Positions 7,983-37,365 of a stretch of 64,000 nucleotides of DNA are shown piece after piece. The notes beneath the pieces are model-generated. The model did not search any database, had not been told where the DNA came from, and saw nothing but the letters and a program-made list of their open reading frames with translations. Positions within the stretch are counted from its first letter, which is position 1; each line of letters opens with the position of its first letter. The translations under genes and the position numbers were made by a program. The stretch comes from a phage. The DNA lies in sequence record PZ357121.2; one strand, given 5' to 3'.

Positions 7983-10196
7983 TTATTTGGCCGCTTCCAC
8001 GGCCTTCATGAATTTAACGATTTGAGCGACCTGTTCTTTAGAAAGAGTACCACGTCGTCCCATGTATTCTGACACAATATGATAATTGGTTTCGAATTCA
8101 ATAACCATTTTATCATCATTATCGTAAGCATTATCTTTAAGCTTATCGAAAATTTTAGCACACAATTCTAACTTCCTGTTCAGGTCTCTGTTTTCAGCAC
8201 CTGCGAATCGATTCCATCCCCAACGATTATTTACTGTTGAGAGTTTTGCAAAATCTTTACTGATTTCTTTGTTTTTAGAGCTAAAATACTTACTAAGGAA
8301 GTTAAGCTCTTCATTACGAGTAATATGATTCAAATAAGGCTGTGCTCTACGACTTGGTGATACATACTCATCATAATCCACTTTATCGATTAGCGTAATA
8401 TAGTCATTAATTGATTTTTCGAACAAGCATTCTACTTCACCAAGTTTACGAACTTTCTTAGCAATCTGTGGACGAACTACAGTGAACTCTTTAATACCTG
8501 ACAAATCAGCAATACGAGTCAAGAAATTGGAGTCATAGTTCAACCAACCTTTATCTGCGTCAAGACATTCAGCGTTAGAACGATTACGAACTATAGCATA
8601 ACCTTGGATTTCATCTGCTTCACTTGCCGGAATAAAGAGGTCTTCTGATACCCAAACATCGTTTTCATTCTTAAAGAATCGATGAGCACTTGGCGATTTA
8701 GGACGAGGCTCATTAGTCCGTTTCCTGACTTCAATCCATGGCTTAACGATTTGTAAAAGCTCTGAAGTCTTGTACATGTTAATGTTGTCGCCATCAAAGA
8801 TAACTTTAAGGCGTTCCAGAAGTTTCATTGCATCTTCGTCTGTAGGGTCAACGAATAGTACGCTTTTACCAAAACCGCGTGGAACTTTACCAGTTAATTT
8901 AACCTCGTCTTTAGACATTTCAATTGAATTAAGAGCTCGCATTAATGGAACGCGTCCCTTAACGTCGTCAATAACGATTTCAACATTTTTAATGTTAATG
9001 CCAATCAGGCTGTTAATTGAAATGGTCGATGATGAGCTACCACTTTCACGAATACGACGAAGACGAGGGGATTCAACGATATCATATACGACGCCAAGAT
9101 TACACCACTCAGGCCCCATTTTAAAACGTTTGTACAACTCAGAATAAGTTAGTTGTTCTTTAGAGTATTTCAGTGATTCAATATTAGACCCGGCCTTTTC
9201 CATGTATTTACGAGCTGTATAGCCAAGAGAATCAATTTCACGGAACACATGACGTGGGTATTTACAATCAATCCATTTCTTAGAATCTTCAGCAAATAAT
9301 TTTGCATCGATTTCTGCAACACGTTTATGGATATTTGCTACTGTACGTTTATCAAATGACAATGCTTCACGAGACGGGGCGACATCTAGTTCACCCATAG
9401 GGAATTTAATATAAGCTGTAGTGCATCGCGTCATCATCCATGTTTGTTCTTTAATAACACTTCCGATTGGATATACAATACCACCGTAAACGGCCATGAT
9501 ATTACCACGTTCACCCCATGGAGCTTCCTTGGCCAAATATACATCGTCAAATTCAGGAAAGTATTTAATATCTTTAACACCACGAACTTCTGCAATATCA
9601 CCTAGAGGACGCATAACATATGCAATTTCAGATGCGAACTTTTCAAAATCTTCTGGGTTAACAGGCACAACTACTTCAACGCCAGTCCGGTCATCAGGAC
9701 CCATCTTATCTACGAAGGTCGGCTTAATCTGTGGACCACTGTCATCTTGATAAATTACATAACCACGAACTTCACCGTTGTGATAAGACGTAAGGTTAAA
9801 CGTATCGGTATATGCTAGTGGAGCTTTAGAGCCTAGTCCGAATCCACCAATGAAATCATTACTCGATGTTTTAGTTGAAGCAAAATATGAGTTATAGATT
9901 CCTGGCTCTTCGTCATTACCTCGAATGGTGAAATCACTCATACCAGGACCAAAGTCTCGAACTACAAAACGTGGGTCTAAACGACCTGGAGCCTGAACAA
10001 TAAACTTATCAGTGCAACCATTAAGAATTTGTCCATCGATACAGTTTGTGATTAATTCACGTACACAAGCCAATTCTTTGTTTGTATAAAGGTCATTAGA
10101 CAAAATCTTATAAACTTTACTATTGCCTTGAATAGTAAATGCTGTGCTCTTACCGCCTGAACCAATAATCGTTTCTTTAGCCGTTTCAATAATCAT
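7983..10196 (-). CDS. rIIA: rIIA protein (737 aa)
   Basis: ATG ORF; histidine-kinase-type ATPase fold motifs near N-terminus; size and context match T4 rIIA. Confidence 0.9.
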   Translation of the reverse strand: MIIETAKETIIGSGGKSTAFTIQGNSKVYKILSNDLYTNKELACVRELITNCIDGQILNGCTDKFIVQAPGRLDPRFVVRDFGPGMSDFTIRGNDEEPGIYNSYFASTKTSSNDFIGGFGLGSKAPLAYTDTFNLTSYHNGEVRGYVIYQDDSGPQIKPTFVDKMGPDDRTGVEVVVPVNPEDFEKFASEIAYVMRPLGDIAEVRGVKDIKYFPEFDDVYLAKEAPWGERGNIMAVYGGIVYPIGSVIKEQTWMMTRCTTAYIKFPMGELDVAPSREALSFDKRTVANIHKRVAEIDAKLFAEDSKKWIDCKYPRHVFREIDSLGYTARKYMEKAGSNIESLKYSKEQLTYSELYKRFKMGPEWCNLGVVYDIVESPRLRRIRESGSSSSTISINSLIGINIKNVEIVIDDVKGRVPLMRALNSIEMSKDEVKLTGKVPRGFGKSVLFVDPTDEDAMKLLERLKVIFDGDNINMYKTSELLQIVKPWIEVRKRTNEPRPKSPSAHRFFKNENDVWVSEDLFIPASEADEIQGYAIVRNRSNAECLDADKGWLNYDSNFLTRIADLSGIKEFTVVRPQIAKKVRKLGEVECLFEKSINDYITLIDKVDYDEYVSPSRRAQPYLNHITRNEELNFLSKYFSSKNKEISKDFAKLSTVNNRWGWNRFAGAENRDLNRKLELCAKIFDKLKDNAYDNDDKMVIEFETNYHIVSEYMGRRGTLSKEQVAQIVKFMKAVEAAK

Positions 10197-10208
10197 ATTT
10201 TTCTCTCA

Positions 10209-10409
10209 TCACAAGTTACGTTTAAAAATTTCTGCTACTTCAAGAAGTTCTTCTTTAGTAGCTGTATCGGTTTGTATTTTATATCGAATTTCCTTAAAGC
10301 GTTCTTTAAAGGCTTCGGCTGATTCGATATCAAAAAATCTTTGGATAAGCCGGAATTCCCGGAGCACTGCTTTATCAAAAAGTTCCAAGTCCACGTTATA
10401 TGTTCTCAT
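10209..10409 (-). CDS. hypothetical protein (66 aa; rIIA.1-like position)
   Basis: ATG ORF immediately upstream of rIIA. Confidence 0.5.
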   Translation of the reverse strand: MRTYNVDLELFDKAVLREFRLIQRFFDIESAEAFKERFKEIRYKIQTDTATKEELLEVAEIFKRNL

Positions 10410-10434
10410 AATATTCTCTTCAGTAGATTCCTAG

Positions 10435-10485
10435 GGCACTATTACTAAAGACCATATAATCTATCATCTTATGTGTAATAGTGCC
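10435..10485 (-). repeat. perfect 11-bp inverted repeat (GGCACTATTAC / GTAATAGTGCC) with 29-nt loop
   Basis: Seen directly; lies between glycosyltransferase stop and next gene start; loop contains TATAAT-like sequence. Confidence 0.6.
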
Positions 10486-10501
10486 TCAGGCGATTCAGGA
10501 T

Positions 10502-11602
10502 TTACGCTGTGAAGATTTTATCCCACATCGCAACAACTGCATCTCGATTATACTTCTTCCATACTGCTTCAGCACGTTTAACTCGAGCTTCGTATGTGTC
10601 AGTGAATTCTAATACAGCTTTTGTGTAAAGCGCAACTACTTCTTTCTTAGGAGTAGAGGAATCAATTTCTACACGCACAGTATCTGGGTCGTATTCGAAT
10701 GTCGCATGAGGATAATCCTTAAAAACTAACTGGATTACAGGGACACCTTTAGAGATGGCTTCAATAGAACTATTCTCTACCGTACCTGTGTCAGGACACG
10801 TATTAATAAGTGCTTTAGCTGTTTTAAGACGTTCCATGATTTCACTGTGTGGAGCATCAATAATAACAGGATACTTAGCCGGTGGTGCCCATTTGCTTGG
10901 ACAGTATCCTGCACCATTTTCGCCTAGTGCTTTAATAGCTTCAAGAGCAACATCAGTACGACGCATTTTAGTGTCATAACGTTGTGCACTAATAATCAGA
11001 TCAGTCGCCGGGAGAACTTCTGGCTTTTCAGTCAAACAAATAACCGGATAATCTTCGGCTTCAAACAACGGATTTGCTCGCCAATAATCATAATCAATTT
11101 TGTCAGTCAGACCTGAAGTCATATAACAATATTTGCGTTCAAATTCACGGAAGGCTTTAGTAGGAGCATAACTCTTACCACCATTCTTATGAATTTGAAT
11201 AGTTTGGTCCCAAATTTGAACAATGCCACGAGATACCGGTTCAAATGGTGTTGCCATAAAATTCTTATGAACTTTAGAGAGACCTACGTCTTTAATTGCC
11301 TGAACGGTTAGTTTAGTCGGTTCCATAGTAACAACAAAATCGTATTCATGGATGCCGGCTAGTTCAACAATCTTACGAGCCATAGTATAACTCATACCTA
11401 GACTGAATTTAGTCAGATGACCAACAGGATGGTGTGTAACTTTCCAGTCACCAAACGTGTCATTATCAAAGCCGATATAATCAATATCAGCACCGATGGA
11501 CACAAGATATTTCAACACATTTAAATGTACTGCTTCAAGGCCACCTTGTACACGGTCAGGATTAAATGGGACTGCACGAGATGGGATAAACATAACTTTC
11601 AT
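10502..11602 (-). CDS. GT-B family glycosyltransferase (366 aa); candidate hmC-DNA glycosyl/arabinosyl transferase
   Basis: ATG ORF; C-terminal motif TGTVENSSIEAISKGVPVI fits GT4-type E-x-E/G-x-PV signature; lies between rIIA and 39 where RB69-type phages are reported to carry their hmC arabinosyltransferase (not verified). Confidence 0.7.
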   Translation of the reverse strand: MKVMFIPSRAVPFNPDRVQGGLEAVHLNVLKYLVSIGADIDYIGFDNDTFGDWKVTHHPVGHLTKFSLGMSYTMARKIVELAGIHEYDFVVTMEPTKLTVQAIKDVGLSKVHKNFMATPFEPVSRGIVQIWDQTIQIHKNGGKSYAPTKAFREFERKYCYMTSGLTDKIDYDYWRANPLFEAEDYPVICLTEKPEVLPATDLIISAQRYDTKMRRTDVALEAIKALGENGAGYCPSKWAPPAKYPVIIDAPHSEIMERLKTAKALINTCPDTGTVENSSIEAISKGVPVIQLVFKDYPHATFEYDPDTVRVEIDSSTPKKEVVALYTKAVLEFTDTYEARVKRAEAVWKKYNRDAVVAMWDKIFTA

Positions 11603-30820: not shown

Positions 30821-31369
30821 TTAACGAGCCCATTTGATAATTTCTGTAATCAAATTATTACGTTCGCTTGCATTAAATCCTATAACTTTGTTAGCACCAT
30901 CATGATTAAGTAATTGATACGTTTGGATTTCGTTATGAATTGCAAACTCTTCAAAATACGAAATGACTGTATTAAACCTGAATGAAGACAAAGTAATAAG
31001 GTCGTCTTCAAAACTTTCAGTCATTTCGTTACGTGTTAAAATAATTGTGAACACATCATGGTTTTGGCAAAGACGAACATAATCCTGTTCATAAACGTCA
31101 AGAACCGAGTCCGCATCTTGTCGAATACGTCCATAAACCCAGTTACTAATATATCCACGGTCTAACAGATAAATCTTAGTAGGGTCTAAATAATTCAACA
31201 TCGTTTCGAAACAGCCAACTTCATTTCGAGACTTAACATCGAAACGTCCATCAACTGTTCGTTTAGGGAAATCAATCTTTACATATCTTTCACTAATTTC
31301 CATTATGTCATTAATGAAAGTTGTTTTACCAGCATTATCCGGGCCATCTACTAAAATAATTTTAGCCAT
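30821..31369 (-). CDS. P-loop nucleotide kinase, thymidylate-kinase-like (182 aa)
   Basis: ATG ORF; Walker A VDGPDNAGKTT and LLDRGY (DRY-type) motif typical of Tmk-like dNMP kinases. Confidence 0.65.
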   Translation of the reverse strand: MAKIILVDGPDNAGKTTFINDIMEISERYVKIDFPKRTVDGRFDVKSRNEVGCFETMLNYLDPTKIYLLDRGYISNWVYGRIRQDADSVLDVYEQDYVRLCQNHDVFTIILTRNEMTESFEDDLITLSSFRFNTVISYFEEFAIHNEIQTYQLLNHDGANKVIGFNASERNNLITEIIKWAR

Positions 31370-31370
31370 T

Positions 31371-32270
31371 TTATTCCTCGATTACGACATCTTCATATTT
31401 AGGTATATTATACGGCGAAGAAATTAAAGCATTAAAGTAGATGAACTCGCCAAGACCTGGATGGAATACTTCTTCAGGATTTTCGAAGTATTGAATCTTC
31501 GGACGTCCTTTAAGAATTTGATAGTACTCAGTTTTAGTTGGTTTAAAAATTCGAATCAGCGCTTCTTCAGGATACTTATTTCTGTCGAAGCTATTATTTG
31601 GATCGGTTATATAAAGCGGTTGACCTAATTGAATTGCACATTCAACCACTTGTTCAAAACGATAGCACGGGTCACTAATTCGAAATGGATGAAAAATACC
31701 ATCTAGATGAATAGGAGCCAAATCACCTACAAGACGCTGCATGATGGAAGGACGTATAACTTTCTGCGTTACGATAATCTTATTACCATCTGCACCTGCG
31801 TTAACCAGCACTTCTTTTTGACGTTCATTCAACACAGTAGTTTGAAGTGAACGATTAACAGACAACATGTCGGTTTTTAAGAATTCGTCAATATAAAAAC
31901 GTGGTTTATTAGGGTCTGCAGTGATATTGAAATTGAATTCTACGTCAAAATTGCCGTCATATCCAGTGATATCTGTGATTAGAAAATCACAATCATAATA
32001 ATCAATTAATGAATCAACCACAAATTCATTTTCAGACCAGAAATATTTACGAGTGTTATATGCGTTATCTTTATACCATAATGGAACAAACTTAAATTCT
32101 GGGAAAAGACGTTCGCATTCTTTAATATCAGATGCATTACGTGGATATGTAATCACATCACCCGGATTAGCACGGTGCAAATGAAGTTGGAAGTTGCCAT
32201 CCTTAAGGATAGCATACTGTCCAGTTTCATAAGACCGCATACTCAAGATAGGTACGCGGAAAATAGCCAT
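31371..32270 (-). CDS. hypothetical protein (299 aa) at the beta-gt locus
   Basis: ATG ORF between uvsX and gene 42 where T4 has beta-glucosyltransferase; no motif recognised. Confidence 0.6.
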   Translation of the reverse strand: MAIFRVPILSMRSYETGQYAILKDGNFQLHLHRANPGDVITYPRNASDIKECERLFPEFKFVPLWYKDNAYNTRKYFWSENEFVVDSLIDYYDCDFLITDITGYDGNFDVEFNFNITADPNKPRFYIDEFLKTDMLSVNRSLQTTVLNERQKEVLVNAGADGNKIIVTQKVIRPSIMQRLVGDLAPIHLDGIFHPFRISDPCYRFEQVVECAIQLGQPLYITDPNNSFDRNKYPEEALIRIFKPTKTEYYQILKGRPKIQYFENPEEVFHPGLGEFIYFNALISSPYNIPKYEDVVIEE

Positions 32271-32986
32271 TAGTCAAGGAATCCTTTAACATAATCAAAA
32301 TCACGGTCAAACACATGGGCACTTACCATGGTATGAGTATAATCACCAACTTCTACACCACATTCTTTAGCGATATAATGAAGTAATTTTCCTTGGAGAT
32401 AAAAATCCAACTGCATAACAACAGCACAGTTCTGAGAACGCATATGACAGTGGGTATAAAGCTTACCATCACGAATATAATAAGTCACTGAGTCAGTACA
32501 TGGATATTCAAGTGTTTCGTCCGAATCAAGCAAAGCCTGATCTGAACTTTCAAGAATTTGAAACACAACTCTTCGTGAATTAGGTTTCTCTTTAAGTTCT
32601 TTGAGAAGAGCTGGTAACTGGGCCGCAATTCGTGGACCATAGAAAGTGTTGAAGTTTGCAGGCAAAGCGTCTGATTTAGGTTTAGAAATAAATTTAGCAA
32701 CGTTAGGATATGCCTTAAATGCTTCTTCTGCGTCGGTACCACCAGAAATCATAAATTTCCAGAAGTCTTCGGCATATTCATAAGAGATGCGGTTAATACG
32801 TGGGTCGGTCATTTTGAATGATGATGGAGTGTCAACAACTACTGTCATAGACCCAATTTCATTACAACGTCCAATACGAGAATCAGTTACGAATTCCGGG
32901 TTTTCTAAAATTTCACGATTGACTGCTTTAAATGCGGATTGAAAATCTGCGGCTTTGATATATTTCATTGTGTTATGTTTTCCCAT
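32270..32986 (-). CDS. 42: deoxypyrimidylate hydroxymethylase, gp42-like (238 aa)
   Basis: ATG ORF with GAGGT SD; catalytic-site region EYPCTDSVTYYIRDGKLYTHCHMRSQN resembles the CT(N/D)xVQYxIRD...MRSND core of T4 dCMP hydroxymethylase; divergent elsewhere. Confidence 0.7.
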   Translation of the reverse strand: MGKHNTMKYIKAADFQSAFKAVNREILENPEFVTDSRIGRCNEIGSMTVVVDTPSSFKMTDPRINRISYEYAEDFWKFMISGGTDAEEAFKAYPNVAKFISKPKSDALPANFNTFYGPRIAAQLPALLKELKEKPNSRRVVFQILESSDQALLDSDETLEYPCTDSVTYYIRDGKLYTHCHMRSQNCAVVMQLDFYLQGKLLHYIAKECGVEVGDYTHTMVSAHVFDRDFDYVKGFLD

Positions 32987-33091
32987 GTTTACCTCAATAC
33001 AGTTATTATATACTCAATTCATAAAGCTTATTTGAATTTCTTAGCGATGTTGATATAACGTAAAGCTTCAGCATCGATACTTCCAAGAACA

Positions 33092-33265
33092 CTATGAAGA
33101 AATGCATCAGCGTAGTATTCTAGTTGAACAGGTTTTAATCACTTTAGCCGCTTTAGTTTCAAACAGGCCCTTATGGGCCTTTTTAAGAATTTGTTCGTTG
33201 CTGTTAATTTTCGTAGTCAAAATCTCTTCGTTAAGTTGGTGGTTAAAAGTTTTTCTAGAAATCAT
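33092..33265 (-). CDS. hypothetical protein (57 aa)
   Basis: ORF below cutoff; ATG overlaps upstream TGA (ATGA coupling). Confidence 0.4.
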
Positions 33266-34422
33266 TCTGGGTACCTCAAAGCGTCGTCAGAGTTAGTTAT
33301 ATCAATAATAGATATAGAATTTTCTGATAACCCATTTTTAGATAACTGACGTTTATAATATCTTTCACAATATGTACACGTCGTCCCGCAGATTTCATTA
33401 GCACAATCGAAATCTGGATGTTTGAACCACCTTTTTTCTAAAAAGCCATCTAACAAAGAGGTTTCAATATTTACCGTATGTGAAAACTCAGTTTCGTTTT
33501 CAAGAGTGAAAATGGTCTCTAAAGGCTTCCACAATTCCAACAAATTACCTTCAAATTTTTCAGAAGCATAAGCTTCAAGAACTTTCAAAATGTAGTCTGT
33601 GCTACCTGTACGTCCCGAAACTTTAAATTGGGTGATACCAATATCGTTATAAAGTTTCAAATCTTGTGGACGAACAAAACGAGTTCTCAACCAGTTAAAT
33701 GGGTCTGTATCACGAGCTTTAATACAGTGCTGCATTGGATATCCATTTAAGGATTTGGCATCATCTACTGTAACATCGGTGCTATGGAAAATATAGCAAG
33801 AGTCACGATAACTACAATGTGTTGTATACCCTTTACCAGCATTAGAACAGAACTCATTTACAAGAACTTCAAATATTATATTGTTCTTATTGCAAAACTC
33901 TGCTGCACGCTTCAGGAAAGAAACTGAACGGTTCTTATGAATTCCACAGCAGACCTTTTTGATATTATATTGGTCATGCAAGTATTTGATTTGAGTTACA
34001 GCATCGACATGTAGAATTGTTGAAACTTCAATCTCAATGTCTTTATTGACTTCACGAACAATTTCCATAACAACAGGGTTAGCGATAGTAATACGCCATA
34101 CGCCTATTGACCAAAGATACTGAACATAATCCTGAATAGCTTTCTTCTTCCACTCAACTAGTTCTCTTTTTGAACCAGGATTTATCGTGTTGAGTGTATA
34201 GTTAAAGCAAATACCTAATTCGTTACAACGTTTAACGTAATCTTCTAACATCTTTTTGTCAACGTCGGGAAGCCTAAAATCAGGTCTGGCTGCTACAAAA
34301 GCCATTTCTCTTGTAGAGCCGTATACTTCGTTTATCAAGCTATTAGGATAAGTTTTATTGAGCTCTACGATTTTATCAAGAAGAGCTAAATCAAAATTCG
34401 TTCCGATTTTAAAGGTATTCAT
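33262..34422 (-). CDS. hypothetical protein (386 aa) with C-terminal Cys cluster
   Basis: ATG ORF; C-terminus CANEICGTTCTYCERYY (Cx4Cx3Cx2C); no family recognised. Confidence 0.65.
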   Translation of the reverse strand: MNTFKIGTNFDLALLDKIVELNKTYPNSLINEVYGSTREMAFVAARPDFRLPDVDKKMLEDYVKRCNELGICFNYTLNTINPGSKRELVEWKKKAIQDYVQYLWSIGVWRITIANPVVMEIVREVNKDIEIEVSTILHVDAVTQIKYLHDQYNIKKVCCGIHKNRSVSFLKRAAEFCNKNNIIFEVLVNEFCSNAGKGYTTHCSYRDSCYIFHSTDVTVDDAKSLNGYPMQHCIKARDTDPFNWLRTRFVRPQDLKLYNDIGITQFKVSGRTGSTDYILKVLEAYASEKFEGNLLELWKPLETIFTLENETEFSHTVNIETSLLDGFLEKRWFKHPDFDCANEICGTTCTYCERYYKRQLSKNGLSENSISIIDITNSDDALRYPE

Positions 34423-34476: not shown

Positions 34477-34863
34477 TTATAGATTCGGTTTATATGATTT
34501 AAATGTTTCGAATTCGCCTTTATTCATAAGAGCTTTGAATTCGTCAGGACGCATAGCTTTGTCGTCGATAATCCAATCATATACTGGTTTATGTGTTAGC
34601 AAATTATGGTACTTCAATCCAATGTTTGCCAAGTTCTGAATCAGACTTGGGAGAATGTCAATTGCTATACGACCAGGACCGACTGACTTCATACCGCGAG
34701 CAGTGTAAAGCGTTATGGTATGCCCTGCATCATACAGGGCATTAATGGCAGACACCATTTCGACGTCTGGTTTGAAGTTCACGTAATCACGATTGTTATT
34801 CCACTCTGTTATACAATCATCGACATCAAAACAAAGATTAAGCATGTTTTCTACACGGTGCAT
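34477..34863 (-). CDS. HAD-superfamily phosphatase (128 aa)
   Basis: Motif I FDVDDCIT (DxDxT) near N-terminus; start at 34863 overlaps upstream TAA (alternative ATGs at 34878 and 34845). Confidence 0.65.
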   Translation of the reverse strand: MHRVENMLNLCFDVDDCITEWNNNRDYVNFKPDVEMVSAINALYDAGHTITLYTARGMKSVGPGRIAIDILPSLIQNLANIGLKYHNLLTHKPVYDWIIDDKAMRPDEFKALMNKGEFETFKSYKPNL

Positions 34864-36548
34864 TAGATTCGTTCCCATTGATGAGTGATATCGCCACCGA
34901 TTGGACGATAAGAAACACCAGTTTCTTTATCAGTTAGTACCCATTTACCAGGATTTTTTGTAATCAGAGTAGCCGTTACAGGTTCTGCTACATCATAACT
35001 AATAGTGCCGTCCTGAAGTACACGGCCCATGTTACGTAATTGCTTAGTCAGAAGTTCCATACCTTTATAATATGCGGCTACCGCTTTAAGTGGATTATTC
35101 TTGAAATAACCACCTAATGCAATCCAGATAATTGCCACTGCCAAATGATGATACTCGTTAAACGAACTCATCTTTCCATATTTGTAAACTAACGGATTGA
35201 TGTTAATAGTCACATTACAAGTTGTTTCATCAATAGTAAACTGTCCCCAAGTCGGATTAGCGTTGAATTCATCATAACCTGAAACAGCGTAAAGCACTTT
35301 AGCTTCATCATACAATTTTGGCCCATAAATCTTGGTTTCACCAAAATATCCACGAGGGTCGATAAACTTGACTTCACCATTATCAGTAATCATAGTATTA
35401 CTGAAGTTCGGGTCACCATGAATAACAGAGTACTGTCCCTGAGAACGGTTATGATAACGAATAAGGTGTTCTAAAGCTTGTTTCAACATTGGCTTCAGAC
35501 GCCCAATCTTAGTGTAGTTCACATGTGTGATTTTACCAAATGAATCAATCAATGGTTGAATACTTTCACAACGATCAATAACTTTAGTATAGAATTCTTT
35601 AGTGAAATCACGACGAACAGTTTCAGGACTTACAAAATAAGTGTCTGTGCTGAATTTCAGTGCATCTAAAATTGCATCAACAATTTGTGGACGAGCAAGA
35701 CTTGATTTGGATTTAATATATTCAAATGCCGGCTTACCTTTAATGCGTTCCATTTCAAAGTTATTTTCATTAACAGAAACTAACTGAGGAACTGAATCTG
35801 ATTTCACTTTAAGATACCATGAAATCTCATCTTTCTGAAGAGCTCGGCCCTGTTCGGTTAATGCGAATTTAGTTACAGTTTCTTCACCAATTTCAACTGC
35901 ATTAAAACTACGATTAAGTTCACGAACTTCATGAGCTTTTTCAAGTTTAGGCATATCACCTAAATCAATTAGATTCATAAGCTCTGATTTATTGAATGCG
36001 CTGCCGTAAAGGAATTCTACGAAATCACGTCCTTTGCAGTATTCATGAATTTCCTCATCAGTAGAACCCATATAGAATTCCCAGTCTTTGAACTGATAAA
36101 TTCCTACAACATTACCACCTGTTGAACCTACATTAGTGATATTTTCACCGTCGAAATTATATCGACATTCGTCACCCTTAACATAGATTGCGTTAACATT
36201 CCAAGACCACGAACCAAAATCAGGAATAATATCACACCAGTTAACAATTACATTATGGCCGTCTAAATCTTTGTGCAATTTAGCAAGAGCATAAGCAGAA
36301 CCATACGCTTCATCAACTGTACGAATAGTCACATTGAACCCTTCTTGCTCACAATAAGCTCGAACAGTTTCAGCAAATTTTGAATGAACTACTACAATAA
36401 TTTCATCTGCGCCAAGGTCAGAATAAATTGTATACAAATTGCTCAGAATAGTGTCTTGTTTATAGTTAACAAGCACCTTAGGAATATGATGCGTTATTGG
36501 ATACAAACGAGTTGCCAGTCCAGCACCAAGAATAACAGCTTTTTTCAT
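34863..36548 (-). CDS. bifunctional sugar-1-phosphate nucleotidyltransferase / sugar kinase (561 aa)
   Basis: N-terminus MKKAVILGAGLATRL is the nucleotidyltransferase G-x-G-x-R signature; C-terminal IHGDPNFSNTMIT is an APH/choline-kinase-type catalytic loop. Confidence 0.75.
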   Translation of the reverse strand: MKKAVILGAGLATRLYPITHHIPKVLVNYKQDTILSNLYTIYSDLGADEIIVVVHSKFAETVRAYCEQEGFNVTIRTVDEAYGSAYALAKLHKDLDGHNVIVNWCDIIPDFGSWSWNVNAIYVKGDECRYNFDGENITNVGSTGGNVVGIYQFKDWEFYMGSTDEEIHEYCKGRDFVEFLYGSAFNKSELMNLIDLGDMPKLEKAHEVRELNRSFNAVEIGEETVTKFALTEQGRALQKDEISWYLKVKSDSVPQLVSVNENNFEMERIKGKPAFEYIKSKSSLARPQIVDAILDALKFSTDTYFVSPETVRRDFTKEFYTKVIDRCESIQPLIDSFGKITHVNYTKIGRLKPMLKQALEHLIRYHNRSQGQYSVIHGDPNFSNTMITDNGEVKFIDPRGYFGETKIYGPKLYDEAKVLYAVSGYDEFNANPTWGQFTIDETTCNVTININPLVYKYGKMSSFNEYHHLAVAIIWIALGGYFKNNPLKAVAAYYKGMELLTKQLRNMGRVLQDGTISYDVAEPVTATLITKNPGKWVLTDKETGVSYRPIGGDITHQWERI

Positions 36549-36589: not shown

Positions 36590-36733
36590 CTAGTTAAAGC
36601 ATTCATACTTTGCTTGTAGTCCAATCATAATCCATCCGATTATAAGAGTCGGAATCATTACTGGAGCCGTTAAGCTCCAGTAGATAGTCATGACAAGCAT
36701 CAATAGTAAAAGTCCTATTGTTATTGCTTTCAT
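36590..36733 (-). CDS. small membrane peptide (47 aa, 2 TM)
   Basis: ORF below cutoff; ATG overlaps SIS gene TGA (ATGA coupling); hydrophobic. Confidence 0.45.
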   Translation of the reverse strand: MKAITIGLLLLMLVMTIYWSLTAPVMIPTLIIGWIMIGLQAKYECFN

Positions 36734-37365
36734 TGTTCGCCTCGTAACATGGCACCTAGTGCACCACCAGGGTGGAACTTAAGGAAGTCATTAGAGGTAA
36801 ATCCACGTTCAGACGAAAGGTTGATAGCAAACGTATCGATAAGCGCTAACAACAATGTAGTGGACATGGTCGGAGCCAGAGAATTCTCATCAACCTCTAC
36901 TGCGATGCCTGTACAGAACGTATAATCAAAAAGAGCTTCGTATTCTTGTGGAATGTCCGGGTTACAATGCAACAGAATCTGTTTGACGTTCGGACGAATC
37001 ATTTTAAGATGCTTAGCCACGCCTATCATTTCTTCAGTTTTACCAGAACGACTAATATGAATCAACACATCATTAGGCGCAATGAATCCTGCATCACCGT
37101 GAGAATAATGCCCAGTGTTCAAGTACATACTCGGGATACCAAGTGAAGCAAATGTCTCAGAAGCTTTAGTTGCAATATTAGCATTCTTACCAACACCTGT
37201 AATAATTACTCGGCTTTCATAATTACTAAGTCCTGGGCGTCGAAGAGTTTCTAGAATAGCATTATAACGAGCAGGGTTTTGACTAATTACTTTGGCCATA
37301 GCGGCCAAAGAAGAAGCTTGTTTTATGATTGCGTCAATAGCGATAGTAATAGGAGTAGTTTTCAT
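36730..37365 (-). CDS. SIS-domain sugar-phosphate isomerase (211 aa)
   Basis: ATG ORF; SIS signatures GVGKNANIA and HISRSGKTEEM as in GmhA/KdsD-type isomerases. Confidence 0.75.
   Translation of the reverse strand: MKTTPITIAIDAIIKQASSLAAMAKVISQNPARYNAILETLRRPGLSNYESRVIITGVGKNANIATKASETFASLGIPSMYLNTGHYSHGDAGFIAPNDVLIHISRSGKTEEMIGVAKHLKMIRPNVKQILLHCNPDIPQEYEALFDYTFCTGIAVEVDENSLAPTMSTTLLLALIDTFAINLSSERGFTSNDFLKFHPGGALGAMLRGEQ

Follow-up and report, generated by a model that had tools for sequence, protein, structure and literature searches.

Genes and features of the locus

The analysis presented here concerns a 64,000-nucleotide stretch of phage DNA (sequence record PZ357121.2; the whole stretch is referred to as the window) and, within its positions 31371-34422, two proteins of 386 and 299 amino acids (aa) that a reading made from the letters alone (the sequence-only reading) had left unassigned inside a DNA modification island. 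The 386-aa protein is a member of the U32 family, for which a role as an oxygen-independent pyrimidine hydroxylase is favoured, if only slightly, while the 299-aa protein is the predicted first glycosyltransferase (GT) of the island. Both open reading frames (ORFs) lie where the sequence-only reading had placed them, and the span additionally holds a 238-aa ThyA-like gene and a small frameshifted ORF, both of which were absent from it (Table 1).

The window comes from a Mosigvirus (RB69-like), and its 6.6-kb island is 97.7-98.9% identical to those of many Mosigvirus coliphages. All genes of the region are on the minus strand and are flanked by a T4-type replication module, with gp41, gp40 and UvsX on one side and the 903-aa gp43 on the other. 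The order runs from gp43 through a SIS isomerase (211 aa), a 561-aa nucleotidyltransferase/kinase, a 133-aa HAD phosphatase, the 386-aa protein, a small-ORF slot, the 238-aa ThyA-like protein, the 299-aa protein and a 182-aa P-loop kinase to UvsX. The DNA of RB69 carries mono- and di-arabinosyl-5-hydroxycytosine (Lee et al., NAR 2026, PMC13326640), with complete replacement of C reported; its ThyA homolog gp48 makes 5-hydroxy-dCMP (5hodCMP) with a flavin cofactor and with oxygen from O2, as demonstrated by 18O2 labelling, and UDP-arabinofuranose (UDP-Araf) can be built by RB69 gp51, gp52:53 and gp55 (PMC13326640). The island product is arabinosyl-5-hydroxycytosine DNA, and the 299-aa and 386-aa proteins belong to different steps of its formation. 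A 2026 paper on Mosigvirus NP had termed the cluster "putative sugar-modifying genes." Neither protein is homologous to ordinary T4 proteins unrelated to modification, and the suggestion of a modification-dependent anti-restriction function applies only indirectly, in that the whole island protects DNA.

Table 1. Features of the modification island and of the outlying glycosyltransferase gene in the window
Feature	Coordinates	Strand	Basis
386-aa U32-family Fe-S protein, RB69 gp50 homolog; proposed O2-independent, prephenate-dependent pyrimidine C5 hydroxylase	33262..34422	-	Pfam Peptidase_U32
U32 metal site 1 codons, C192-x10-C203-x5-C209-x23-C233	33724..33849	-	RlhA alignment and conservation in 128 representatives
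U32 metal site 2 codons, C340-x4-C345-x3-C349-x2-C352	33367..33405	-	Conservation; putative Fe-S electron-relay or structural role
299-aa compact GT-B glycosyltransferase, RB69 gp46:47 homolog; predicted base-proximal arabinosyltransferase on 5-hydroxycytosine	31371..32270	-	Fold
238-aa thymidylate-synthase homolog, RB69 gp48 homolog; flavin-/O2-dependent 5-hydroxy-dCMP synthase	32270..32986	-	Pfam Thymidylat_synt, E 1.9e-15; gp48 function in PMC13326640
Slot between U32 and ThyA-like genes, frameshifted Mosigvirus-specific 79-aa ORF	32987..33265	-	Alignment with SHSML-52-1, phiC120, AV117
182-aa Tmk-like nucleotide kinase, RB69 gp45 homolog	30821..31369	-	PHROG 761 thymidylate kinase, E 4e-45; PMC13326640 Table 1
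133-aa HAD-type phosphatase, RB69 gp51 / HY126 AfhF homolog	34477..34878	-	NCBIfam TIGR01689, E 4e-13; PMC13326640
561-aa bifunctional sugar kinase / nucleotidyltransferase leading to UDP-arabinofuranose, RB69 gp52:53 / HY126 AfhE homolog	34863..36548	-	Pfam NTP_transferase and weak kinase-family matches; PMC13326640
211-aa SIS-domain arabinose-5-phosphate isomerase, RB69 gp55 homolog	36730..37365	-	Pfam SIS, E 1.7e-10; PMC13326640
366-aa GT4-type glycosyltransferase, RB69 gp3 homolog, second arabinosyltransferase, outside island	10502..11602	-	E 4.7e-249 to HY126 glycosyltransferase 9iqz/9ir0

Family, fold and cysteine sites of the 386-aa protein

The 386-aa protein matches Pfam PF01136 Peptidase_U32 at 42.4 bits against a cut-off of 22.4, its residues 94-286 covering profile positions 2-192 of 233. 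The earlier impression that neither protein belongs to a recognised family is incorrect as regards the 386-aa protein. Structure prediction, the route that the sequence-only reading had proposed, yields a barrel of the (beta/alpha)8 (TIM) type like 5D88, the only solved U32 member, and sequence and profile searches of the PDB returned nothing meaningful. Characterised U32 proteins are Fe-S oxidases and not proteases (PMC6747719, PMC11574389). UbiU and UbiV carry out O2-independent hydroxylation of ubiquinone precursors with prephenate as the shown oxygen donor (PMC6747719, PMC10990095), while TrhP forms 5-hydroxyuridine (ho5U) in tRNA and RlhA forms 5-hydroxycytidine in 23S rRNA, both requiring prephenate and Fe-S biogenesis (PMC6599085, PMC5727448). 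By comparing the phage family profile with the four E. coli paralogs, RlhA was found to be the best match (probability 83%, E 9e-6, 203 columns); the matches to UbiU (hhalign probability 4.5%) and TrhP are too weak for use. Identity with UbiU was rejected on NCBIfam NF047963 (19.4 bits against an equivalog cut-off of 440). Orthology with RlhA was rejected as well, given a single barrel in 386 aa against about 650 aa with duplicated U32 regions, a different C-terminal motif and no NCBIfam RlhA match; the protein is RlhA-like in its working at most, and not an ortholog. The U32 subfamily to which it belongs stands apart from canonical U32, a search of 1.84 billion representatives having given 1,696 hits at E <= 0.001, 484 of them at E <= 1e-30. 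Its RB69 counterpart, gp50, appears in Table 1 of PMC13326640 only, as a "Sugar or heterocycle reductase" with a 5d88 match, and is never discussed; the discussion of that paper mentions RNA pyrimidine hydroxylation pathways and makes no connection to gp50.

The cysteine tail pointed out by the sequence-only reading is an exact C-x4-C-x3-C-x2-C motif (CANEICGTTCTYC, aa 340-352), but the protein does not end there, as 34 further residues follow. Ten cysteines are conserved in 121 close and medium homologs, nine of them invariantly, including C340, C345, C349 and C352, whereas C177 is replaced by Ala in 3 distant homologs. Across 128 diverse representatives (23-47% identity), the four tail cysteines are present in 120-122, so that the motif is no accident of the sequence; C192, C203 and C233 are conserved in 126-128, and position 209 is Cys in 74 and His in 53. 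In the segment THC203SYRDSC209Y, C203 and C209 align with C169 and C176 of RlhA, which are essential in that enzyme (PMC5727448), and the U32 family motif CX6CX15CX3/4C binds a [4Fe-4S] cluster (PMC6747719). Taken from the sequence, the Fe-S nature of the 386-aa protein is well supported, and two four-ligand metal sites on one chain are suggested, the first of which would overlap the family Fe-S motif at another spacing. A two-cluster, single-chain enzyme is a reasonable inference, since RlhA needs its C-terminal cysteines (PMC5727448) and UbiU-UbiV share two clusters (PMC6747719). A radical SAM reading of the CX3CX2C part, prompted also by an aromatic residue ahead of its last Cys, was rejected, as Pfam Radical_SAM gave no match, the motif sits at the extreme C-terminus after the barrel, and a fourth cysteine, C340, is conserved with it.

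The residues beyond the motif (353-386; 33262-33367, minus strand) are modelled at low confidence (predicted local distance difference test, pLDDT, 47-58) and occur in the T4-like clade only. Distant homologs stop soon after the cysteine motif, while the T4-like tail closes in a conserved acidic SDDxLRYPE and could serve as a docking peptide.

Linkage to chorismate mutase

Just downstream of the U32 gene, an AroQ chorismate mutase (CM; Pfam CM_2 32.8-46.3 bits, cut-off 27) was found in 9/9 tested non-Mosigvirus T4-like lineages, namely Kanagawavirus, Mosugukvirus, Tegunavirus, Gualtarvirus, Bragavirus, Winklervirus, Kagamiyamavirus, one Klebsiella phage and Shewanella phage Thanatos-2. In the last of these the island is rearranged and the two genes are still adjacent, and the record of phage Entb_45 carries an annotated "chorismate mutase" adjoining its U32 gene. 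A wider survey comprised 47 viral loci fetched with the U32 family profile and three metagenome loci, giving 50 in all (15 T4-like, 35 distant), which were annotated with island-seeded profiles. CM is present in 13 of the 15 T4-like loci and overlaps the U32 stop codon by 4 nt in 8. Compared with E. coli PheA, the phage enzymes keep six of the eight residues that we take to form the EcCM active site (R11, R28, K39, D48, R51, E52, S84 and Q88): R11, R28, K39, E52, S84 and Q88 are retained, D48 is changed to N in 8/9, and R51 is lost. Because CM makes prephenate, such lasting coupling is what would be expected of a prephenate-consuming hydroxylase. New here are the U32-CM pairing across phage lineages and, as described below, the fusions of CM with another enzyme beside U32, the distant loci in which U32 has its usual partners and no ThyA-like hydroxylase, and the rank of U32 as the most constrained gene of the island.

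The window itself departs from this arrangement, as CM is absent both from the slot and, by the CM search, from the rest of the 64 kb. The slot ORF was rejected as a CM, since neither the 52-aa nor the intact 79-aa version matches CM_2, the phage CM profile scores about 1-3 bits, and hhalign gives a probability of 0.15%. A 2-nt deletion near 33133/33134 frameshifts the 79-aa ORF, which is intact in SHSML-52-1 and phiC120, into a 52-aa ORF at 33107-33265, and thereby explains the 52-aa and 33-aa ORFs of the window slot; it reflects either a decaying gene or a sequencing error in the record. AV117 has an independent 39-nt deletion, one Klebsiella phage has no slot gene at all, and slot DNA is only 90-95% identical among most Mosigviruses. 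With CM lost in Mosigvirus, prephenate would have to come from host PheA/TyrA, as it does for RlhA, TrhP and UbiUV.

Conserved partners in distant viral loci

All 15 T4-like loci hold the ThyA-like gene, the GT, the kinase, the HAD gene and the 561-aa homolog. Among the 35 distant loci, the 299-aa GT family accompanies U32 in 16 by direct profile (E 1e-46 to 1e-10) and in 24 with iteration, the Tmk-like kinase in 9 by direct profile and in 27 with iteration, and iterated searches find the 561-aa family in 17 and SIS in 10. CM, or a fusion of DAHP (3-deoxy-D-arabino-heptulosonate 7-phosphate) synthase and CM, adjoins U32 in 11/35. Within the flanks available (at most 10 kb on each side), a ThyA-family gene was found in 1/35, and it looks like an ordinary ThyA (E 9e-41 to the E. 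coli enzyme). This outcome was the same in an unfiltered six-frame search at E <= 1, for which E. coli ThyA and T4 gp42 had been added to the superfamily profile. Most simply read, U32 does in distant phages what the ThyA homolog does in Acinetobacter phages, and RB69-like phages have the two together.

Three compact arrangements, each with its genes in one direction, are seen repeatedly: kinase-GT-U32; GT-SIS-nucleotidyltransferase-(kinase)-(CM)-U32; and U32-CM-GT-nucleotidyltransferase...kinase, the last on jumbo-phage contigs of 148-294 kb. The bare kinase-GT-U32 cassette, which has no sugar-activation genes, occurs in six loci (L036, L040, L041, L045, L049 and L062; about 8400-11100 in most) and lies between DnaG primase and DnaE in the two where this was checked (L062 and L036). 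These loci are candidate new DNA hypermodification systems that would use a host sugar donor. In L036 and L041, weak GT47-like or TET-associated-glycosyltransferase-like genes follow the cassette. Proteins 50-58% identical to the 386-aa query are encoded on unrelated phage and megaphage contigs, among genes for dCMP deaminase, uracil-DNA glycosylase (UDG), dUTPase, Tmk, deoxynucleoside kinase (dNK), the 5'-nucleotidase NT5C and DNA polymerase III.

DAHP synthase is the first enzyme of the shikimate pathway. Fusions with DAHP synthase at the N-terminus and CM at the C-terminus adjoin U32 in four loci (L044:8411-9433, L047:7302-8357, L048:8332-9387 and L058:11079-12197), and a DAHP-synthase-family gene stands beside U32 in L004. 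To judge by these gene assignments, some phages appear to carry shikimate-pathway enzymes within a DNA-modification module.

Two further loci have unusual surroundings. At L002:10001-17428 (also in L003), U32 is found with NT5C, an NMN-type transporter, a deoxynucleoside kinase, a fragment resembling alanyl-tRNA synthetase (AlaRS), a radical-SAM/SPASM gene, another U32-like gene and a nucleoside deoxyribosyltransferase; the cluster has the look of one for the salvage or modification of nucleosides and is possibly bacterial. On a 466-kb megaphage-like contig (L001:944-11086), a MazG-like pyrophosphatase, a radical-SAM/SPASM gene, a protein of 402 aa that weakly matches a queuosine-mannosyltransferase N-domain, Tmk, UDG, DnaE and dCMP deaminase precede U32, and no ThyA homolog was found in the 21 kb seen.

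Selection, distribution and hosts

Both the 299-aa and the 386-aa gene are under purifying selection, and U32 is the most constrained island gene in every comparison, with a nonsynonymous divergence (dN) of 0.09-0.15, where the ThyA-like gene has 0.14-0.26 and the GT 0.25-0.45; within Mosigvirus its omega is about 0.02. So constrained a gene is no dispensable relic, yet Acinetobacter phage Acj61 and Dhakavirus JS98 have an island without U32 and CM, and DLP3, which makes arabinosyl-5-hydroxycytosine (arabinosyl-5hoC), has no U32 in its gene list (PMC13326640). The islands of these three phages show the sugar branch to be independent of U32. The island is modular in other respects: Dhakavirus JS98 (L017, 1781-6894) keeps imm and has no annotated SIS gene, one Klebsiella phage group (L010) has U32 and CM with the kinase moved upstream, and another (L071) has U32 with CM cleanly deleted and a 43-bp gap remaining.

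U32 is present in 222 phage records, and every host genus named in them is a facultative anaerobe (Escherichia, Klebsiella, Shigella, Serratia, Proteus, Yersinia, Enterobacter, Providencia, Edwardsiella, Pectobacterium and Shewanella). The GT is present in 349 records including 57 Acinetobacter phages, none of which is among the U32 matches, all at least 80% identical to the query. Acinetobacter is strictly aerobic. A clean rule relating U32 to aerobic or anaerobic hosts was nevertheless rejected, as it holds one way only: about 40 Dhakavirus coliphages are also without U32 and CM.

The 299-aa glycosyltransferase

The 299-aa protein has no match in Pfam or NCBIfam, nor in the PDB by sequence or profile search. 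Its AlphaFold model (pLDDT 95.4, from a 64-sequence alignment) shows two Rossmann-like domains in a GT4-like GT-B topology, the fold being the sole basis of the family assignment. The position noted by the sequence-only reading was borne out by comparison with the T4 annotation, the gene occupying the T4 beta-gt locus, immediately downstream of the gene-42 homolog and toward uvsX, although sequence similarity to the T4 enzyme is undetectable; there is likewise none to the 366-aa GT. Mosigvirus orthologs are 99% identical, and in all T4-like islands inspected a homolog lies next to the ThyA-like gene. RB69 gp46:47 has been predicted to be "arabinosyltransferase 1," with gp3 adding the second arabinose (PMC13326640). 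The 299-aa protein is the island's own GT and is predicted, here as in the literature, to transfer the first arabinofuranose from UDP-Araf onto the cytosine 5-hydroxyl. It is thus a real glycosyltransferase, as the sequence-only reading had considered, but not the "second" one, because a separate GT4 enzyme, near-identical to the HY126 glycosyltransferase of solved structure (9iqz), is encoded elsewhere in the window; this half of the finding is already known from the literature.

In four distant loci (L042:2594-4411, L051:5237-7057, L057:5354-7006 and L063:5237-7057), the GT domain, at about residues 10-390, is followed at its C-terminal end by an extension of some 200 aa. Iterated search (jackhmmer) alone links this extension to the Tmk-like kinase, a link that the non-iterated kinase profile did not confirm. 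These proteins may be GT-kinase fusions, which would hint at a coupling between the first glycosylation and steps at the level of the nucleotide.

A proposed oxygen-independent pyrimidine hydroxylase and its alternatives

We hold, with a little better than even confidence, that the 386-aa protein hydroxylates pyrimidines at C5 with prephenate and independently of O2, as a backup for the O2-dependent ThyA-like 5hodCMP synthase. The proposal builds on family membership, fold, conserved ligands, gene linkage and selection, from which we infer the substrate, the oxygen donor, the cluster chemistry and the independence from oxygen. The host range of the phages with U32 and the O2 requirement of the neighbouring ThyA-like enzyme also speak for it. 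As in the published pathway, the phage dCTPase would convert dCTP to dCMP, which the ThyA-like flavoenzyme turns into 5hodCMP where O2 is available, the latter step having been demonstrated in the literature. Where O2 is lacking, U32 would oxidise the cytosine ring, most likely that of dCMP, with prephenate decarboxylation supplying the hydroxyl to give 5hodCMP, phenylpyruvate and CO2, by analogy with the chemistry described in PMC10990095. Electrons might leave through the barrel site C192/C203/C209/C233 and the C-terminal CX4CX3CX2C to an acceptor. The Tmk-like kinase and the host nucleoside diphosphate kinase (NDK) would then raise 5hodCMP to the triphosphate for incorporation by gp43, a step drawn partly from the literature; the 299-aa GT would add the first arabinofuranose and the 366-aa GT, by published prediction, the second. 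Parallel U32 and ThyA-like routes would allow DNA modification in the anoxic gut as well as in air.

A broader proposal, which we put at somewhat less than an even chance, is that the U32 subfamily constitutes a widespread viral pyrimidine C5 hydroxylase whose substrates are free deoxynucleotides and whose oxygen donor is prephenate, each chain bearing two metal sites. It would be the sole source of 5-hydroxypyrimidine in many uncultivated phages, including jumbo phages, and an O2-independent route beside the flavin enzyme in RB69-like ones, while some phages would import DAHP synthase and CM and so push host shikimate flux into DNA modification. The literature searched holds no relevant link of U32 with arabinosyl phage DNA or with phage chorismate mutase, and the functional prediction for U32, which is new, specific and testable, is apparently unpublished.

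Several points weigh against the assignment of U32 as a hydroxylase. Similarity to the E. coli paralogs is weak and the family profile fails to pull in canonical U32 proteins; the family motif CX6CX15CX3/4C is only partly matched, the 386-aa protein having CX10CX5CX23C. The Mosigvirus lineage of the window is without a CM partner, the absence of ThyA from the distant loci extends no further than the short metagenomic flanks, and some 40 E. coli phages of the genus Dhakavirus without U32 imply that it is not required in a facultatively anaerobic host. No U32 protein has yet been shown to hydroxylate in vitro (PMC10990095, PMC11574389), and, as far as nucleic acids go, the family is known to act on RNA polymers and not on free nucleotides (PMC5727448, PMC6599085). 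He et al. 2026 (Nat Chem Biol) and Mahler et al. 2025 (Cell Host Microbe), outside the literature search, may assign the gene differently.

U32 might alternatively be a hydroxylase of cytosines in phage DNA after replication instead of dCMP. All characterised nucleic-acid U32 enzymes act on polymers (PMC5727448, PMC6599085) and the prephenate linkage would fit equally well, yet we consider a DNA substrate unlikely, since the kinase that travels with U32 (27/35 iterated, 9/35 direct, and in the minimal cassette) is sensible only if a modified mononucleotide needs phosphorylation, the other neighbours are dCMP deaminase, dUTPase, NT5C and dNK, and full replacement of C, as in RB69 (PMC13326640), is easier through the nucleotide pool. 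Were RNA of the host or phage the substrate instead (tRNA U34 or rRNA C2501), U32, together with CM in relatives, would tune translation and its place in the island would be incidental. The closest characterised relatives are indeed RNA hydroxylases, and T4-like phages encode tRNAs. This nonetheless seems quite unlikely, as E. coli already has RlhA and TrhP, the two-domain architecture of RlhA is missing (386 aa against 653 aa), and U32 is accompanied in the 35 distant loci, inside replication modules, not by translation genes but by a GT, a nucleotide kinase and enzymes for sugar nucleotides.

A redox role in the sugar branch, whether as the "sugar or heterocycle reductase" of Table 1 in PMC13326640 or as the metal or Fe-S dependent sugar-modifying enzyme of the sequence-only reading, would suit a gene that sits among sugar-activation genes and a TIM barrel common to many sugar enzymes. 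The pathway from ribulose 5-phosphate (Ru5P) to UDP-Araf is, however, complete without U32, the same arabinosylated base is made in DLP3 without the gene, the Acj61 and JS98 islands also do without it, six kinase-GT-U32 loci have no sugar genes at all, and linkage to CM has no role in pentose chemistry. A sugar enzyme is therefore very unlikely; what survives of the earlier suggestion is its Fe-S part, in keeping with U32 membership and the two conserved four-ligand cysteine sites, and the conserved partners, namely CM, nucleotide kinase and GT, speak against "sugar-modifying." The name "peptidase U32," which many phage records and the PHROG 5757 label carry over into annotation, would make the 386-aa protein a collagenase-like protease, but the name is historical, characterised members are Fe-S oxidases (PMC6747719, PMC11574389), and eight conserved metal-ligand residues and a CM partner would be out of place in a protease, which makes this reading barely credible. 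For the 299-aa protein, the activity of the family is predicted only, and the homologous DLP3 gp79 alone is inactive on 5hoC DNA (PMC13326640), which counts against the GT assignment and could suggest a second, chain-extending GT with the base-proximal sugar coming from another enzyme. Such a role is highly improbable, given that Thanatos, which is mono-arabinosylated, has only the 299-aa type of GT (PMC13326640), that this family is the constant partner of whichever hydroxylase is present, and that the RB69 homolog of the separate GT4, gp3, is the published candidate for the second arabinose.

Significance

If the U32 protein is the proposed hydroxylase, the arabinosyl-5-hydroxycytosine phages, which are common in coliphage collections and are therapy candidates, would have two routes to their protective base, one of which would be usable in the anoxic gut, where the published enzyme, being dependent on O2, fails. 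A parallel is found in T4, which has both aerobic and anaerobic ribonucleotide reductases. Glycosylated 5-hydroxypyrimidine DNA would further be predicted in hundreds of uncultivated phage lineages without a thymidylate-synthase homolog, which current prediction rules (the ThyA D169N signature) would miss for want of any ThyA homolog there. The absence of an in vitro reconstituted U32 oxidase is attributable to the nature of the substrates, namely a precursor of the ribosome, a tRNA or a quinone that is very hydrophobic (PMC10990095, PMC11574389). With the phage protein, the U32 family would gain its first enzyme for a substrate that is small and soluble, and a 386-aa single-chain enzyme acting on dCMP and prephenate would make the "organic oxygen donor" chemistry directly testable.

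Comparison with known systems

RlhA (YdcP), the E. coli 23S rRNA 5-hydroxycytidine-2501 synthase, is the closest parallel by Pfam family, paralog profile match and the proposed hydroxylation at cytosine C5. The essential cysteines of its U32 motif align with those of the phage protein, its C-terminal cysteines are essential too, and it depends on prephenate and on Fe-S clusters (PMC5727448). It differs in its 653 aa with two U32-type domains acting on an rRNA precursor, against a single barrel of 386 aa with a proposed deoxynucleotide substrate, and in a C-terminal C572/C580/C611/C614 arrangement against the phage CX4CX3CX2C, with marginal sequence similarity. TrhP and TrhO, which form ho5U34 in tRNA (PMC6599085), provide the precedent for pairing a prephenate-dependent U32 route with an O2-dependent route to the same 5-hydroxypyrimidine, kept in organisms that live with and without oxygen. 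Their O2-dependent partner is of the rhodanese family whereas that of the phage is a flavin-dependent ThyA homolog, the substrate is tRNA as opposed to dCMP, and the profile similarity to TrhP is weak. UbiU-UbiV share with the phage protein their standing as U32 Fe-S proteins, with prephenate as the proven oxygen donor and two [4Fe-4S] clusters per functional unit (PMC6747719, PMC10990095), but they form a heterodimer in which each subunit has one cluster, and their substrate is a lipid, where the phage protein would hold both metal sites on one chain.

Within the island, the ThyA-like 5hodCMP synthase (RB69 gp48, DLP3 gp80 and its HY126 counterpart; PMC13326640) has the same proposed product as U32 and lies 276 bp downstream of it. 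It uses a thymidylate-synthase fold, flavin and O2, and its function, unlike that of U32, has been shown experimentally. The 299-aa protein shows no substantive difference from RB69 gp46:47 and DLP3 gp79, the RB69 reference gene being split by a sequencing error where the window gene is one ORF. From T4 beta-glucosyltransferase it differs in having no detectable sequence similarity, in its arabinofuranose sugar and in an acceptor that is the 5-OH on the ring instead of a hydroxymethyl group; the two enzymes share a position downstream of gene 42, the GT-B fold class and the glycosylation of a cytosine C5 substituent.

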